Shown here piece by piece: positions 31,193 through 39,688 of a DNA stretch of 64,000 nt. Below the pieces are notes generated by a model. It was not told the origin of the DNA and did not search any database. It was given only the letters and a program-made list of their open reading frames with translations. The stretch's first letter is position 1, and each line of letters opens with the position of its first letter. Both the position numbers and the translations under genes were made by a program. Origin of the DNA: Candidatus Poribacteria bacterium (GTDB lineage Bacteria > Poribacteria > WGA-4E > WGA-3G). The stretch covers positions 832,001-896,000 of the forward strand of contig OZ219753.1 in assembly GCA_964291315.2 (NCBI GenBank), read 5' to 3'.

Positions 31193-31302
31193 TGTTAAAA
31201 ATATGCATGAGGCCATTGTAGAATGTGGTGTTAAGCAACCCGTCTACCAATGGATTTGTAAAAAAGCAAAATCATTTCGCAGTTACCGAGGCAGTATTTT
31301 AT

Positions 31303-33270
31303 ATGAAAGATGAAACCCTTCCTTCCTTAGCAGCATCTCACATTCCTGCCCACGGTGTCACACTCAAATCTATACTTATTGCTGTTATCCTCATACCGAT
31401 TAACTGTTATTGGGTTATTGAGATGGAGGTTATCCGATATTCAGGGCATCCTGTGACGATTTCTCTCTTTTTCAACGTAATCTTTAGCCTCTTCGTGGTA
31501 ATAGGTGTGAATCAATTGTTGCGGCGTTTTCTACCGAGGCTGACCTTGGCGCAGAGCGAATTAGTAGTTGTTTACCTGATGTTATCTATTGCTTCAGGTA
31601 TCGCTGGTCATGACATGCTTGAAATTTTGGTGCCGATGTTGGGACATGCGTTCCGCTTTGCAACGCCAGAAAATGAGTGGCAGCAGTTGTTTGTGCCATT
31701 TCTCCCAGAGTGGCTTACTGTTAGTGACACAAAGCTCTTATACGGCTATTATGAAGGGGAGCTGCCCCTTTATACGGTTAGAACGTTATTGGGTTGGGCA
31801 ACTCCTGTTCTGTGGTGGACTGCTTTTATTACGTTGTTGGTTTTTGGGATGCTTTGCATTAATATAATCGTCCGAAAACAGTGGATTGAACACGAAAAGC
31901 TCAGTTATCCTATAATTCAGTTACCACTTCAATTAACAGAGACACCCCAAAATCGTCTTTTTCAAAACAGGCTGATGTGGATCGGCTTTGGGATTGCAGG
32001 TGCGCTTGCTCTCTGGAATGGTATCAACTTTCTGTATCCGATTTTACCTGAATTACGAACGCGTGTGCGGAGTGTTCAAATCTTTACAGAGAGTCCGTGG
32101 AACGCTATGGGTAGAATCCCGTTTTCATTCTATCCTTTTGCTATTGGACTTGGTTTCTTTATCCCGCTGGATCTTTCGTTCTCTTGTTGGTTTTTCTTCT
32201 GGTATTGGCGGTTTATGCGGGTTTTTGGTGCTGCGCTTGGGCTGCGCAGCCTCCCTGGCTTCCCTTATATGAGTGAGCAAGCGTCTGGTGGCTATCTTGC
32301 GCTATGCATTTTGGCAATTTGGGCAAGTCGAAGGCATCTTTTGCGGGTTGGAAGAACTGTTCTTGGCCTGAATACCCAGCGGAAAAACAGTGAAACGTCT
32401 GCTTCAAGCGAACCGATGTCGTATCGGGCAGCTACTTTCTGCCTGATAGCCGTAATGGGGTTTCTTACTGTTTTCTGTTACTACGGTGAGGCTGAAGTGT
32501 GGGTGATGTTCACATTTTTTGTAGTTTACTATATGATTTCCATTGCTATAACTCGGATGCGCGCTGAGTTAGGTACTCCTGTTCATGACTTACACTATTC
32601 TGGTCCGGATGAAATATTGACTCGCACTGTCGGCACACGCCGGTTGGGTAGAAACAACCTTATTATGTTTTCCATGTTTTGGTTTATCAATCGTGCATAT
32701 CGGAGTCATCCGATGCCGCACCAGTTGGAGGGTTTCAAAATCATGGAGCGTACAAACATGACAATGCATCGCATAGTTTTCGCTTTGACGTTAGCAACTG
32801 TTTTGGGTTCATTGGCGGGGTTTTGGGCGTTGATTGATCGTGCTTATCGCTTGGGCATGGAAGTGCGGGCTTATTCGCCGTCTCTGAGTGCTTTCGGCAT
32901 AGAGCCGTATCGTCGCCTTGCTGGATGGTTACAAGCGCCTGAAGGGGCGCTTATACCGGAGAGCGGGTTTATGGGGGTCGGTTTTCTGTTGACAACGGTG
33001 CTTATGTTTTTTCGGATGCGTTTCGTTTGGTGGCCATTTCATCCTGCTGGATTTGCTATCTCAACAAGTTGGGGCATGAACGTTACGTGGAGTTGTCTAT
33101 TCCTGAGCTGGTTGATCAAGTGGCTTATTCTTCAATATGGCGGTGTGATTCAACATCGCAAGATATCTCCGTTCTTCTTGGGATTAATCTTAGGAGAGTT
33201 TACAGTCGGCAGTCTGTGGACAATTCTCGGAATTATCGCTGGAATTCCTACCTACGGGTTTTGGGTTTAA
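31303..33270 (+). CDS. Polytopic membrane protein (DUF6785/DUF6784-like, putative transporter)
   Basis: Many TM segments; RKQW..HEKLSYP, TRMRAE.G, WWPFHPAG, FFLGLILGE; GAGG RBS before ATG 31303. Confidence 0.7.
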   Translation: MKDETLPSLAASHIPAHGVTLKSILIAVILIPINCYWVIEMEVIRYSGHPVTISLFFNVIFSLFVVIGVNQLLRRFLPRLTLAQSELVVVYLMLSIASGIAGHDMLEILVPMLGHAFRFATPENEWQQLFVPFLPEWLTVSDTKLLYGYYEGELPLYTVRTLLGWATPVLWWTAFITLLVFGMLCINIIVRKQWIEHEKLSYPIIQLPLQLTETPQNRLFQNRLMWIGFGIAGALALWNGINFLYPILPELRTRVRSVQIFTESPWNAMGRIPFSFYPFAIGLGFFIPLDLSFSCWFFFWYWRFMRVFGAALGLRSLPGFPYMSEQASGGYLALCILAIWASRRHLLRVGRTVLGLNTQRKNSETSASSEPMSYRAATFCLIAVMGFLTVFCYYGEAEVWVMFTFFVVYYMISIAITRMRAELGTPVHDLHYSGPDEILTRTVGTRRLGRNNLIMFSMFWFINRAYRSHPMPHQLEGFKIMERTNMTMHRIVFALTLATVLGSLAGFWALIDRAYRLGMEVRAYSPSLSAFGIEPYRRLAGWLQAPEGALIPESGFMGVGFLLTTVLMFFRMRFVWWPFHPAGFAISTSWGMNVTWSCLFLSWLIKWLILQYGGVIQHRKISPFFLGLILGEFTVGSLWTILGIIAGIPTYGFWV

Positions 33271-33319: not shown

Positions 33320-36193
33320 TTAATACCCTTCATCAGGGCGTGTATTTATCGCTAGGTTTAGTGGTAAGAAAAATAGTGTCAGACTGAACAAAACTGCCCA
33401 CTGCCATTCCCATTTGAGATGTGCCATCCCCAAGAATTGCCTAATAGGTTCGACATAGACAGCAATCAGATGAAGTGCGATGCAGGTGAAGAAGACGATG
33501 AGGAGTTGGGTATTGGCAAACATCCGCTGGAAGAGCGGTTCCCATGGATACCGCAATGTTTGCCAACATGTCGTCAATTGTGTAAGAATCAGCGTGGTAC
33601 ATGCGACTGTTCGCGCTATTGAGATATCCGGGATTTCCTGATTTGTCGGATTTGAAGTGGAGAATACATTTTTCAGTAATGTCGAAATGCCGAGCGGATC
33701 AGAGAGGGCAGGCGAGTTCCAAAGCAGGAAGAAAAACGGGATAACCGTCATCAGCGCGATGGTTGCAGAACGGCAAATAATATCTACAAGTGTTGTTTTC
33801 GAGAAGAAGCGGGAAGTGGAAAAAAGGGTTGGTCGGTGATGTTTTTCATCTGCAAATATTTTTTCTGTTCCGACCGCTAATGAGGGCAGTAAGGTTAGGA
33901 GGAATTGCACCCAAATGACTTGTGTTAACGTCAAAGGCATAGGCAGTTTATAGAGGTAATGTAAGATTGTGCCGAAGGTAAGTGTTAGGAGTAAGGAGAG
34001 CGTGCAGGAGAAACTCCATCTTAGAAAGCCGGCGATATTGTGATATGCTTCTCGTGCGTAAAGTAGTCCGTCTCTTACTGCTTGAAAGCCTTTTGTGTCG
34101 ATTAATCCGTCAGCGACGGCTTGAACGACATGTGATGCTCGGTTGCTATCTGCGAGCGTAGTGTTGGCGACGTTCATGGCGCGCAGGTCTGCGCTATTTT
34201 CGCCGAGGAATCCCACGATTTGTCCTTGTCGTTTCAGGCTGAGAACAATATTTCTGCGTTGTTCCCAGTTGGGTTGAGAATAAGCAAGCCACTTTGAGTT
34301 TTCTGCGTCGAATTTTTCACGTGGAATTTCTTCTAGTTCGTCGGCGGATACGACTGATTTTCTGTTGTGAATTAACCCGAGGTCCTTGGCGAAATCGATT
34401 GTCTGTTGTTTTGTATCTTCTGCCATGAGGATAATTTTAAGTCCGGTATCAAGGCTGGATTTGAGCACCTTCTTTGTTTGTTCACTGTTGCTGACAGAGA
34501 GCGCGATAAACCCCAAAAATGTTGCGCTGTTTTCCATTTCCTGTGGTTTCAAAATAACGTCGGAGGAGTGGAAGGCGACTCCGTAAATCTGGGCTCTAGT
34601 GGTAAGTAGGTAGTTAATAGCTTCGCAGTATTTCTCGTATCGGTCATCTTGCATCGGTACAATTTCGCCACCGATAAAGACTTCTGCACAAGTATCAAGC
34701 ACTATCTGTGCGTCCCCAAAAATGACATTGGAATAGTTCTCTGGTTCTGCCTCGAACACCTTCATCTGATATCCGTAATTACGTGTGGCGGGGTATGAAT
34801 CTACCAAGGGGAGTTTGTGGTGCAGCGCATTGAGTTGGTAGCCGAGTTGTTGGATCGCTTTTTGAATGGTTGCTTGTGCTGAAAGAGCCTCGTTTGGTGT
34901 TCGTGTGTTTGAGTCTTCCTCTATATTGGGAGTCTCGGAATTATCTGTTTGTTGTTGGTTAGAAATACAGAGTCCAGCTGTAAATAGCAGGTGAGGCACA
35001 CCTTGCGGGATTTTTCCGCGGGTCGGCATTGTCTCAACCGTCTCTTGTCGTTCTCTGGGGGACAGGCTTTGCAAAGAGTCTAACCACTGCTGCAAGGCGT
35101 TACCGTCAACGAGTTGTTCATCCACAAAGAGATTAGAGATTGTTAATGTTCGTGTTGTAGAGAGGCCTTCTTCATTTGCGCAGAAGGCGGTAATGCGGCT
35201 CAATTTTTCAAGGCTGCGTGGGTTTCGTAATATAATGCCTTTTGCCAATAGTTTTTGGGTATGCTGCGAAAAAGAGACCCGCAGCAATGAAATGGCATCG
35301 TGTGGTGTAGCGGCAAGGATGAAGAGTACTCCAAGGTATAGCAGTGCGTACCAATCGGTTGACTGCTTCTGATATTCAAACCACCAAGCGACTCCAACAG
35401 TTATGCTGGCAACAATTGCTCCTGCCACTTTCATAGTGTTGTGGAGGTTTTGCGCCTCATTTTCTGCCAGGGTGTTCCGGGTTTTCGGTGCATGGACATC
35501 ACGTCGTTGTTTTCGTATTTCCAGGTCTTTTCCTGTCTGTACAACAATTGCGAATCCGTGTCCTGCCGTGATGTATGTTCCCCCGAATGCCATATTTTTT
35601 TGTTTTTGTGGTGGTACGCCTGCCTCAGTAATATCCGAGCTTGTTTTCATTACTGGTTCTTGAGTACCAAAGAGTGCGGATTCGTCGATCCTCAGTCCTT
35701 CAGATTCGATAATTCGGGCATCAGCTGGCACATAGTCGCCTGCCGTGAGGGGGAGTAGATCACCCGGCAAGATGTCTTCGGGGGGGTATCTGTCTGTTTT
35801 TCCGTCCCGGATGACTTTGACACTGTGTGCCATAAGTTGGCGTATGCTCTTGTCGCGGTTGCGGTTTTGATGGTTTGTCAGATACGCCCATCCGATATGC
35901 AGAATTAAGACAGCTGCAACAACTCCTATCGTAGAAAGACTAATACCGCTTGCTTCCTTGGTAAAGGCGATAATCAAGGTAATCATTGCTAATGTCAGAA
36001 CGATGATGCGCCATGTAACCAGTGGCCCTAGGATCTCTTTAAGAGGCGGCGTTTTTTCCATGGGTTCCAGATCGTTCGTGCCATACTGTGCTTTCGCTTT
36101 TTCTACAGCGGAAGCGCTCAACCCTTGGTTGATACTGGAGTTGAATTTATTCAATATGGATGCAATGTTTTCGGTATAAAAATTTGGTATCAT
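33320..36193 (-). CDS. P-type ATPase (type II-like) homologue with degenerate catalytic motifs
   Basis: GLS...YGTN, VIRDG...PGD...GDYVPADARI and PMPL..QVIW retained; DKTGT replaced by NEEGL. Confidence 0.85.
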   Translation of the reverse strand: MIPNFYTENIASILNKFNSSINQGLSASAVEKAKAQYGTNDLEPMEKTPPLKEILGPLVTWRIIVLTLAMITLIIAFTKEASGISLSTIGVVAAVLILHIGWAYLTNHQNRNRDKSIRQLMAHSVKVIRDGKTDRYPPEDILPGDLLPLTAGDYVPADARIIESEGLRIDESALFGTQEPVMKTSSDITEAGVPPQKQKNMAFGGTYITAGHGFAIVVQTGKDLEIRKQRRDVHAPKTRNTLAENEAQNLHNTMKVAGAIVASITVGVAWWFEYQKQSTDWYALLYLGVLFILAATPHDAISLLRVSFSQHTQKLLAKGIILRNPRSLEKLSRITAFCANEEGLSTTRTLTISNLFVDEQLVDGNALQQWLDSLQSLSPRERQETVETMPTRGKIPQGVPHLLFTAGLCISNQQQTDNSETPNIEEDSNTRTPNEALSAQATIQKAIQQLGYQLNALHHKLPLVDSYPATRNYGYQMKVFEAEPENYSNVIFGDAQIVLDTCAEVFIGGEIVPMQDDRYEKYCEAINYLLTTRAQIYGVAFHSSDVILKPQEMENSATFLGFIALSVSNSEQTKKVLKSSLDTGLKIILMAEDTKQQTIDFAKDLGLIHNRKSVVSADELEEIPREKFDAENSKWLAYSQPNWEQRRNIVLSLKRQGQIVGFLGENSADLRAMNVANTTLADSNRASHVVQAVADGLIDTKGFQAVRDGLLYAREAYHNIAGFLRWSFSCTLSLLLTLTFGTILHYLYKLPMPLTLTQVIWVQFLLTLLPSLAVGTEKIFADEKHHRPTLFSTSRFFSKTTLVDIICRSATIALMTVIPFFFLLWNSPALSDPLGISTLLKNVFSTSNPTNQEIPDISIARTVACTTLILTQLTTCWQTLRYPWEPLFQRMFANTQLLIVFFTCIALHLIAVYVEPIRQFLGMAHLKWEWQWAVLFSLTLFFLPLNLAINTRPDEGY

Positions 36194-38629: not shown

Positions 38630-39688
38630 TTATTCCAGATGCATGATGGTTCCTGTGGAGCTTGCTAGCCACACGTTTTTTTCATCAAGTACAAAGACTT
38701 TGACCAATTTTTCCTTATATTCTTCGAGTTGCCAAGTTTTGCCGCCATCTGTTGTATGTAGGATGGCCCCAACTCCCAGGTCGCCTCCGGTGGCCCATCC
38801 GTTATTTTCGTCAGCGAACCCGACGCTTCGCAGGGTTTCCTGTGTGCCGCTGGTCTGATCTGTCCAAGTTTCGCCGCCGTTGTTGGTGTGAAGGATTACG
38901 CCATTTTCGCCGACTGCCCATCCTATTGAGGCATTAAGAAAGAAGATGTCTTCGAGAATGTCTTCTCTCCCGGTGTCTTGCGTGACCCAGCTCCGCGCCC
39001 CGTCAGTGGTTTTCTGAATGAGGGAGCTCTGCGTTTTTGCGCTGGGGCTCACGTGGACTCCTGCGAGCCAGCCTGTTTCTTCATTTAGGAACTGGACAGC
39101 GTTGTACATATTCGCGTCGTCATCACCAATTTGCCCGAGGAGTCCTCCTTGGAGGACTTTCCATGAACGTCCGCCGTTTCTTGTGGAAAGGATTGTGTCG
39201 CTTTCTCCTACGGCGAACCCGATATCTTTATTAGCGAAGTAGATGTCTTTAAGACCGTTTCCGACTTTGCTTGCTTGCAGGTCCCAGTCTTGACCGTTAG
39301 TAGTTGCTACGATTGTACCGTTTGCGCCGACTGCCCATCCGTATTTATCATCTAAGAAGTAAACTTCGGCTAAATCGGCGCTAATTTTGACCTCCGATTT
39401 CTTCCAGGATGCTCCGCCGTTTGTCGTGTAACCGATAAACCCGGGGTTCTCGAAGTCCTCGAATGATGCTGCGCCGACTACCCACCCCGTGTTTTTGCTA
39501 GTAAAGGTGAGCGACATGTAATCTCGGAAGTCTGGATCACGTTCTTGCAGGACTGTCCAGGCTTCCGCGGATGGTAAAGCAGCAAAAATGGAGTAAGCGG
39601 TTGCTACGGCTAGAAGGGTTGCTAAATGCAATGTGAGTTTTAAACTGTTTCGTCTGAACCGAAGTCCGTGTGACTTCAATTTATTCAT
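38630..39688 (-). CDS. Secreted YCF48-like / BNR beta-propeller protein
   Basis: Repeated F.....GWAVG..G.I..T.DGG.TW. Confidence 0.88.
   Translation of the reverse strand: MNKLKSHGLRFRRNSLKLTLHLATLLAVATAYSIFAALPSAEAWTVLQERDPDFRDYMSLTFTSKNTGWVVGAASFEDFENPGFIGYTTNGGASWKKSEVKISADLAEVYFLDDKYGWAVGANGTIVATTNGQDWDLQASKVGNGLKDIYFANKDIGFAVGESDTILSTRNGGRSWKVLQGGLLGQIGDDDANMYNAVQFLNEETGWLAGVHVSPSAKTQSSLIQKTTDGARSWVTQDTGREDILEDIFFLNASIGWAVGENGVILHTNNGGETWTDQTSGTQETLRSVGFADENNGWATGGDLGVGAILHTTDGGKTWQLEEYKEKLVKVFVLDEKNVWLASSTGTIMHLE

Follow-up and report, generated by a model that had tools for sequence, protein, structure and literature searches.

The Candidatus Poribacteria contig OZ219753.1 (assembly GCA_964291315.2) carries, within the 64,000-nucleotide stretch analysed here (positions 832,001 to 896,000, hereafter the window), a gene for a 957-residue protein that has the domain architecture of a P2A-type Ca2+-ATPase and in which the motifs for phosphorylation, dephosphorylation, nucleotide binding and cation binding have been replaced. 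P-type ATPases are defined by the aspartyl-phosphate that forms on their DKTGT signature; at this point the protein, which we refer to as the pseudo-pump, reads NEEGL. We give a probability of about 0.8 to the reading that it descends from a bacterial P2A pump, has been conserved and has lost the capacity for phosphorylation, a reading that covers both the features described below and the loss of catalysis. That the protein is non-catalytic but functional appears, from the residues concerned, very probable indeed. Nearly all residues that handle ATP and calcium have been lost, yet the gene is intact and under selection; it should therefore have a job other than pumping. What is new here would be a family-level pseudoenzyme derived from P2A pumps.

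Descent from P2A pumps

The preliminary description of this stretch had claimed an intact frame of 957 residues, free of stops and frameshifts, and the list of open reading frames together with the translation bears this out: the coding sequence (33320..36193, minus strand) begins with ATG and has zero internal stops. Three Pfam models that mark P2-type pumps outside their catalytic parts, PF00690, PF00122 and PF00689, match the protein, each above its cut-off, and within the segment of the first of these residues G24, L25, G38 and N40 are conserved throughout the orthologue alignment A2. A search of Protein Data Bank (PDB) sequences gave 93 distinct sequences at E ≤ 0.001, headed by the Listeria Ca2+-ATPase LMCA1 (6zhf_A) with an E-value of 1.8e-50. 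On sequence comparison the protein is homologous to the P2A Ca2+-ATPases (LMCA1/PMR1/SERCA-like), far beyond chance. Both descent and fold place it in the P-type ATPase superfamily, with the actuator (A), phosphorylation (P) and nucleotide-binding (N) domains, a membrane part of ten transmembrane helices and the homology itself.

Models built for particular enzymes respond differently. NCBIfam ranks Ca2+-ATPase equivalogs at the top, yet far under their cut-offs (TIGR01522, 189.1 against 798.3 bits; TIGR01116, 146.1 against 703.4 bits). The sole NCBIfam model passed is TIGR01494, the generic HAD-IC P-type ATPase subfamily, and then barely, at 63.3 against 62.3 bits, a pass that reflects overall similarity. 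The hydrolase model PF00702 and the N-domain model Cation_ATPase PF13246 give no Pfam match in the window protein, even at E ≤ 1. The nearest proteins are 59–78% identical, with at least 254 matches at E ≤ 0.001 among 8,000 candidates scored, 120 of them listed; among the matches listed, every source that is named to organism is Candidatus Poribacteria. Their public labels are 'cation-transporting P-type ATPase', 'Ca2+-transporting ATPase', 'cation transporting ATPase C-terminal domain-containing protein' and 'hypothetical protein', and names that denote an active Ca2+ or cation ATPase would mislead metabolic reconstructions of Poribacteria.

Replacement of the catalytic and ion-binding residues

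Motifs were mapped by a HMMER alignment to LMCA1 and by MAFFT alignments with canonical sequences, and residue by residue these uphold each of the eight replacements listed in the preliminary description (Table 1). First of all, the phosphorylated Asp of DKTGT is Asn340, and the change from Asp to Asn does lie at 35174-35176, where it had been placed. Second, the catalytic Glu of TGES is gone, the loop reading FGTQ. Third, HAD motifs II and III have lost the Thr of TGD, the Lys and most of GDGxND, the corresponding segments being AED, Arg646 and GENSAD, in which only the last Asp is kept. Fourth, the nucleotide site of the N domain has F492 at the Lys position of KGAPE, Ala469 at the adenine-stacking Phe position and Gln535 at the nucleotide Arg position, beside the missing PF13246 match. 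Finally, where P2A pumps have acidic or amide cation ligands in M4, M5 and M6, the pseudo-pump has H, L/Q, Q and T; the positions by which a P2A Ca2+-ATPase would be recognised hold H298, T731, L734, Q763, L766 and T767, and the equivalog scores fall short as given above.

At 24 catalytic or ion-binding side-chain positions, numbered in what we take to be the SERCA1a scheme and mapped through the alignments themselves, the window protein keeps the canonical residue at two: the D627 equivalent, which is variable among orthologues, and D669, the invariant last Asp of GDGVND. What has been lost is the acyl-phosphate Asp, the TGES Glu, the Lys, Phe and Arg of the nucleotide site, most Mg and phosphate ligands, and every acidic residue of the cation site. 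The earlier statement that every catalytic motif is replaced thus holds for the motifs and fails if extended to every residue, since the M4 Pro, G176, G343, G493, G664 and D669 are kept.

The former active site among orthologues

Motifs and entropy were scored in 78 orthologues, and ten deeper ones bring the set to 88; a broken copy (L078) and a canonical gammaproteobacterial pump (L081) were left out of all orthologue counts. DKTGT is found in none of the 88, and a bare Asp, in D-E-x-G contexts, in 22. The phospho-site residue is N in 64, D in 22, H in one and S in one; among the 78 scored it is N in 60, D in 17 and H in one, followed by Glu in 77 of 78, then by a hypervariable position, and the Gly of the motif is present in 78 of 78. 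On a tree of the 88 orthologues, which included the phospho-site column itself as 1 of about 950 columns, the site changes state at least seven times (five counting D and N alone). Because the site toggles between N, D, H and S, the carboxylate must be dispensable, and because Asp and Asn alternate within one equally conserved orthologous family, no essential acyl-phosphate is to be expected at that position.

The remaining former sites follow two courses. Some have been fixed in a new state: T181 to F (78/78), K352 to E (77/78), K684 to R (78/78), N768 to T (76/78), N796 to Q (78/78) and D800 to T (77/78), the last two being the Asn and Asp positions of M6. At the TGES-equivalent positions F occurs in 78 and G in 77 of the 78, followed by T/S and then E/S/Q; the position of the catalytic Glu is T, S, A or V in every orthologue scored. 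The Lys position of KGAPE is F in 73 of 78 and V in the other five, and in the GDGVND equivalent G664 and D669 are invariant (78/78) while the first Asp has become Q in 62 and E in 15. Others drift. The equivalents of E309 (the M4 gate), T353, F487, R560, D627 and N706 are among the most variable sites, at the 86th to 99th percentile of entropy; of these, the M4 Glu position (Y/Q/H/G/F) lies at the 94th percentile, and the adenine-stacking Phe position (residue 469) is likewise hypervariable. Over the 78 orthologues the mean entropy of the 24 former functional positions is 1.14 bits, against an all-site average of 1.07 bits, and 32% of random sets reach 1.14. Constraint on the former functional positions is thus a mosaic, some drifting and others fixed in a new state. 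Deeper orthologues from families f2, f3 and f4 of the order keep PEG(I,L) or PDGI in M4, and those of f3 and f4 keep Lys at the K684 position, yet all are without DKTGT, TGES and GDGVND; from these sequences it looks as if catalysis was lost early and further drift and refixation followed.

Could the protein still be an enzyme, one that binds a phosphate compound and may hydrolyse it by an unorthodox chemistry through Asp/Asn340, Glu341, Arg646 and Asp669? The Asp kept in a quarter of the orthologues, the invariance or near-invariance of D669, R646 and E341, and the narrow pass of TIGR01494 all speak for it. Such an enzyme would, on the other hand, have a nucleophile position that is N, H or S in close orthologues and has changed as often as described, hypervariable equivalents of T353, N706 and D627, replacements at the TGES Glu and at the equivalents of K515, F487, R560 and D703, and no HAD hydrolase match in Pfam. 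We consider it very improbable.

Distribution, intactness and selection

A locus scan with one genome per species gave 79 loci, 78 of Poribacteria type and the gammaproteobacterial L081. Disruptions, had they been frequent, would speak for decay; among the 78 there is one, and the frame is open in the other 77, running to roughly 910-990 codons from stop to stop, with two that run off contig ends. The disrupted copy, L078, has a frameshift near residue 394-402, and its similarity stops at residue 730 though the locus continues. This copy (L078:6001-8185) is 60-62% identical and sits on a contig titled as a Caldilineaceae metagenome-assembled genome; the disruption may be that of a genuine pseudogene or an error of long-read assembly, or the contig may come from Poribacteria and have been binned wrongly. 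In-match stops were flagged in genus g9 alone, and in the two loci fetched (L089 and L098) the stop-to-stop frame is 918 residues long, which shows the flagged stop to be the gene's end.

Of 121 Poribacteria genomes sampled and searched whole, 111 each gave a single match at E ≤ 1e-100. By family of the window's order the counts are 80/81 (f1), 9/9 (f2), 19/19 (f3) and 2/3 (f4), and in the other orders and classes (f5-f8) 0/8; identity to the window protein reaches down to about 31%. Upstream thrB and aminotransferase genes accompany 77 of the 79 loci, a Ycf48-like gene 76, and a convergent downstream DUF6785 gene 71. The thrB and aminotransferase pair is there in all 20 loci that are just 38-44% identical, and since gene order is shared even at that distance, the distant forms are positional orthologues. 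The f1-f4 orthologues form one clade with support of 100 (FastTree, 77 rows, long branches flagged). The gene is, then, single-copy and syntenic across four families of one Candidatus Poribacteria order.

Selection was measured as the pairwise ratio of nonsynonymous to synonymous substitution rates (dN/dS) by the Nei-Gojobori method (NG86) over 372 pairs with dS of 0.05-1.5. A ratio near 1 would indicate neutral drift; the median is 0.126 (range 0.073-0.290), far below 1, and it stays at about 0.13 in each comparison band. Among 209 pairs of 85-97% identity the domains rank from P, at 0.09 in both its halves, through M5-M10 (0.115), A (0.129), N (0.14), M3-M4 (0.16) and the N-terminus (0.17) to M1-M2 (0.23). 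For neighbouring genes the corresponding values in these pairs are 0.046 (aminotransferase), 0.051 (DUF6785), 0.055 (UppS), 0.079 (thrB) and 0.106 (Ycf48-like). Constraint on the pseudo-pump is thus slightly looser than on core enzymes, but its evolution is far from neutral. What we find is an enzyme homologue lacking its catalytic residues and conserved under purifying selection, which is what the term pseudoenzyme denotes.

These results also bear on the idea that the gene is a relic drifting towards loss, or an artefact of assembly or annotation. In its favour, no catalytic motif is left, one copy (L078) has a frameshift and is cut short, and dN/dS lies above that of the neighbouring enzymes. 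The idea founders on the open frames in all but one locus, on the single full-length match in 111 of 121 genomes, on a dN/dS of 0.13 in all comparison bands, on conserved synteny and on the recurrence of the same substitutions in more than 100 independent assemblies, and we regard it as effectively refuted. The preliminary description had seen here an old, maintained, non-catalytic protein and not a recent pseudogene. Age and maintenance are supported by dN/dS, single copy number and synteny over four families, and the residues lost point to the absence of catalysis.

Predicted fold

An AlphaFold2 model built from a 40-sequence alignment has a mean predicted local distance difference test (pLDDT) score of 82.9 and a predicted template modelling (pTM) score of 0.74. 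It shows ten long membrane helices, an M4 that breaks at 295-299 around the kept Pro, and one disordered insert in the N domain (413-437); with its ten helices and its A/P/N order, the model supports the earlier view that transmembrane layout and domain order are intact. In a Foldseek search of the PDB the model has 271 matches at E ≤ 0.001; each of the 50 listed is a P2-type pump (Na,K-, H,K-, SERCA, SPCA, LMCA1). Among the matches listed, the template modelling score for the query (TMq) peaks at 0.70-0.71 with several E1-type entries, and most E2 entries lie at 0.54-0.59, with two of them at 0.67.

Other P-type ATPases in the phylum

The genome to which the window belongs is 4.4 Mb in size and an estimated 95% complete, the window lying on its contig 4. 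Its only other E1-E2_ATPase match is a 744-residue pump of the P1B heavy-metal type with CPC, TGES, DKTGT and GDGIND. This second pump is located at G000:C4:1520135-1520674 (locus L001), and all canonical motifs are present in it. A PF00122 search of this 95% complete genome found no canonical P2 pump and no KdpB-like match. Across 61 genomes of the order, two E1-E2_ATPase matches occur in 45, three in 14, four in one and one in one. High-scoring matches (160-220 bits) in these genomes have open frames of 646-915 residues and include every frame shorter than 900 residues; one 915-residue frame (in G062) scores 210.5 bits, and all other frames of at least 900 residues score no more than 107 bits, resembling the pseudo-pump. 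No canonical P2 paralogue turned up in the window's own genome or in the 61 genomes, judged by score and length, residues having been inspected for the second pump of the own genome.

Many pseudoenzymes regulate active paralogues, and the preliminary description had offered a regulatory partner as one possible role, beside those of scaffold, sensor and passive conduit. Were the protein a regulator or decoy, the active P2-type pump on which it acts would be expected in the same genome. The own genome offers a P1B pump as its only other match, and 45 of the 61 genomes hold just two E1-E2_ATPase matches. Because these genomes, judged by score and frame length, show no canonical P2 paralogue, the idea is disfavoured, and we hold it to be very improbable.

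Poribacteria outside the order have P2-like open reading frames of 899-959 residues that are just 23-27% identical to the pseudo-pump (L082-L085, in genomes G002, G101, G008 and G046). Their phospho-sites read NKKGI (one f7 genome), DPQGV and DPKGV (two f5 genomes) and EREWG (one f6 genome); they are also degenerate at TGES and keep motifs in differing combinations. The single f8 genome examined has a canonical gene with DKTGT, TGES and PEGL. Among the 144 most similar full-length representatives in a library clustered at 50% identity, 20 are without a DKTGT-like signature and 124 have it; ten of the distant degenerate representatives were looked up, and the two that carry an organism name are Candidatus Poribacteria. 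One of these distant degenerate relatives, P0128, was itself used as a query, and most of what it matched were canonical pumps of Bacillota. By their sequences, more distant degenerate relatives are present in other lineages of the phylum. The tree, built with FastTree only, has long branches, and we therefore make no claim that the degenerate forms in Poribacteria all go back to one origin.

A possible ATP-independent function

If the residues are read correctly, the pseudo-pump would go through no Post-Albers cycle, with no ATP-driven autophosphorylation, no canonical ATP binding and no occlusion of Ca2+. All domains remain under constraint, the headpiece and above all its remodelled P domain no less than the membrane part, and even at about 31% identity none of them is missing; we therefore suppose that the protein still makes use of the link between headpiece and membrane. 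The mechanism that we prefer is that of a transducer independent of ATP hydrolysis, which might be a passive pathway with a gate or else a sensor in the membrane. The remodelled, charge-rich pocket of the former phosphorylation site (E592 and the fixed E341, R646, R647, D669 and R671) would take up a ligand or partner, and the occupied pocket would act on an uncharged polar membrane core formed by T731, Q763, T767 and one face of M8 with invariant C, T, Q and W residues (CTT..TQ..CWQ). Granted that the protein is functional and non-catalytic, such a coupled gate or sensor is a tentative choice at somewhat less than even odds, and there is a small chance of something else altogether. In its boldest form the proposal is that, throughout the phylum, a P-type pump has been turned into a channel or sensor that works without ATP, in which the A, P and N domains, still coupled to the membrane domain, would gate an uncharged polar pathway or report a signal from the membrane or the cytoplasm. 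This we think rather unlikely as a whole; if true, the protein would be the P-type counterpart of CFTR among the ABC transporters and the first family-level pseudo-P-type ATPase.

The pump fold might instead serve as a static scaffold or obligatory subunit, a membrane anchor or docking platform with neither gating nor transport. The neutralisation of all acidic ion-site residues and the hypervariable gating position in M4 give the membrane core a silent look, and the strong constraint on the P domain (dN/dS 0.09) can be explained by a conserved cytoplasmic interaction surface. On the other hand, the retention of all domains and ten helices at about 31% identity is more than a simple anchor needs, and no partner is indicated: the neighbouring genes are housekeeping genes, and the adjacent DUF6785 gene belongs to a multi-copy family, so that its adjacency is not specific. 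Taken by itself the scaffold is a doubtful but serious candidate; given a functional and non-catalytic protein, it gains slightly and still stays well short of even odds.

Several points weigh against the reading of a conserved pump descendant without phosphorylation, or against the gate or sensor that we attach to it. First of all, the absence of catalysis is something that we infer from sequence. Second, some phosphate or metal chemistry is conceivable, since the Asp survives in 22 of 88 orthologues and since the Asp that ends GDGVND, the Arg at the Lys position and the Glu beside the phospho-site are kept throughout or nearly so. Third, a dN/dS of 0.13 is somewhat above that of the neighbouring enzymes, and the ranking of the domains by dN/dS resembles what we would expect of an ordinary pump, so that the ranking alone is no proof of a new function. 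Fourth, the gate or sensor is a mechanism that we infer indirectly, and the hypervariable M4 Glu position fits a silent, self-satisfied membrane core and hence a scaffold as well as a conduit. Finally, the conformation in the AlphaFold model is a prediction and is no evidence for the state of the protein in the cell.

Relation to known systems

The LMCA1/PMR1/SERCA-type P2A pumps share with the pseudo-pump the domain order, the ten transmembrane helices, the M4 Pro and the overall fold. They are also the nearest named relatives of the less degenerate member P0128, and the ESM Atlas returned only ordinary bacterial Ca2+-ATPase clusters. Unlike these pumps, the pseudo-pump has replaced DKTGT, TGES, KGxP, DPPR, TGD and most of GDGVND and matches neither the HAD hydrolase nor the N-domain model of Pfam.

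Sequences that deviate from the signature have been noted before. A survey of 9,634 P-type ATPases found DKTGT in 99.77% of them, and the 22 without an intact DKTGT had single point changes, possibly sequencing errors; its authors suggest that some of these variants are non-functional or highly specialised (Pedersen et al. 2014 PLoS One, PMC3896382). Such variants are like the pseudo-pump in being P-type by homology with the signature absent. They are single point changes, whereas the pseudo-pump has replaced all motifs, belongs to a clade found in more than 100 genomes and is under purifying selection. The literature searched, passages of a 2023 review (PMC10654040) among it, describes neither a P-type ATPase clade without the motifs nor the Poribacteria protein, though its coverage is incomplete and absence from print is not proven.

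A P-type ATPase-like module that serves something other than classical pumping is also found in the guanylate cyclases of alveolates. The ciliate versions are said to have changed conserved residues. In a study of Plasmodium GC-alpha, the catalytic Asp appears essential, since parasites with the substitution could not be selected (PMC7858053), and that domain is therefore no pseudoenzyme. These cyclase domains are moreover eukaryotic, of P4 type and fused to a cyclase, whereas the pseudo-pump is a stand-alone bacterial protein derived from P2A pumps.

CFTR and SUR among the ABC proteins illustrate how a pump architecture can become a gated conduit or a regulatory subunit. Among P-type pumps, the channel structure of the palytoxin-bound Na+,K+-ATPase (9vj0) is a good structural match to our model (TMq 0.70). 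Both serve here as analogies, the pseudo-pump being known from its sequence and a model, and the two ABC proteins differ from it in that they still bind ATP, the residues for nucleotide binding having been replaced in the pseudo-pump.

The family suggests that the P-type fold has a use beyond ATP-driven pumping, and, as a natural experiment, it may tell which parts of the architecture still count once the Post-Albers cycle is gone. It also points to a membrane function that is nearly universal in one order of Poribacteria, abundant and uncultivated sponge symbionts, whose inspected genomes are without a canonical P2-type cation pump.

Feature coordinates and genomic neighbourhood

Table 1. Coordinates in the window of the pseudo-pump gene, its Pfam domains and its replaced motifs
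Feature	Residues	Position	Strand	Basis
Complete coding sequence, protein P0001 (957 aa)		33320..36193	-	Translation of the open reading frame; P-type ATPase homology
Cation_ATPase_N PF00690 (N-terminal part of A domain)	7-71	35981..36175	-	Pfam E 2.9e-09
E1-E2_ATPase PF00122 (A domain and M3-M4)	120-308	35270..35836	-	Pfam E 7.3e-27
FGTQ for TGES dephosphorylation loop	175-178	35660..35671	-	LMCA1 alignment
PHDA for M4 PE(A/G)L; Pro kept, ion-gating Glu gone	297-300	35294..35305	-	Alignments
NEEGL for DKTGT; Asn340 codon 35174-35176	340-344	35162..35176	-	Alignments
Acidic/polar N-domain insert, low confidence, variable in length	413-437	34883..34957	-	pLDDT <50; gapped/variable in alignment A1
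FGDAQ for KG(A/G)P(D/E) nucleotide-binding motif	492-496	34706..34720	-	LMCA1 alignment
VSNS for DPPR	567-570	34484..34495	-	Alignments
AED for TGD	591-593	34415..34423	-	Alignments
Arg at catalytic (HAD motif III) Lys position	646	34256..34258	-	Alignment; R in 78/78 orthologues
GENSAD for GDGVND; just first Gly and last Asp kept	664-669	34187..34204	-	Alignments
Cation_ATPase_C PF00689 (M6-M10)	751-946	33356..33943	-	Pfam E 4.3e-18
M6 VQFLLT for cation-binding (V,I)NLV(T,N)D	762-767	33893..33910	-	Alignments

The genes that flank the pseudo-pump (thrB, an aminotransferase, a Ycf48-like BNR protein, UppS, RsgA and PCMT) give no hint of its function. A scan for promoters and terminators gave counts not above those in shuffled sequence (9 against 6.8 and 6 against 5.1).

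The convergent neighbour at 31225-33270 on the plus strand encodes a 681-residue membrane protein with DUF6785 and DUF6784. Every one of the 121 Poribacteria genomes sampled has DUF6785, at 7-12 scored matches and 8-94 first-look candidates apiece, and none of 14 control genomes has it; this is a very large, phylum-specific expansion of a membrane-protein family. This neighbour had been considered as a specific partner of the pseudo-pump and was dropped because the family has many copies per genome.

A secreted-looking BNR/Ycf48-like protein of 352 residues is encoded at 38630-39688 on the minus strand (PSII_BNR, E 4.4e-26). In 76 of 79 loci its gene stands in one conserved block together with those for the aminotransferase, thrB and the pseudo-pump. 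Ycf48 is an assembly factor of photosystem II, and its likeness is unexpected in a non-photosynthetic lineage. Long open reading frames between 24 and 46 kb of the window are mostly on the minus strand. The GC skew is positive in nearly all 2-kb bins, and the cumulative skew climbs steadily over the whole 64 kb.

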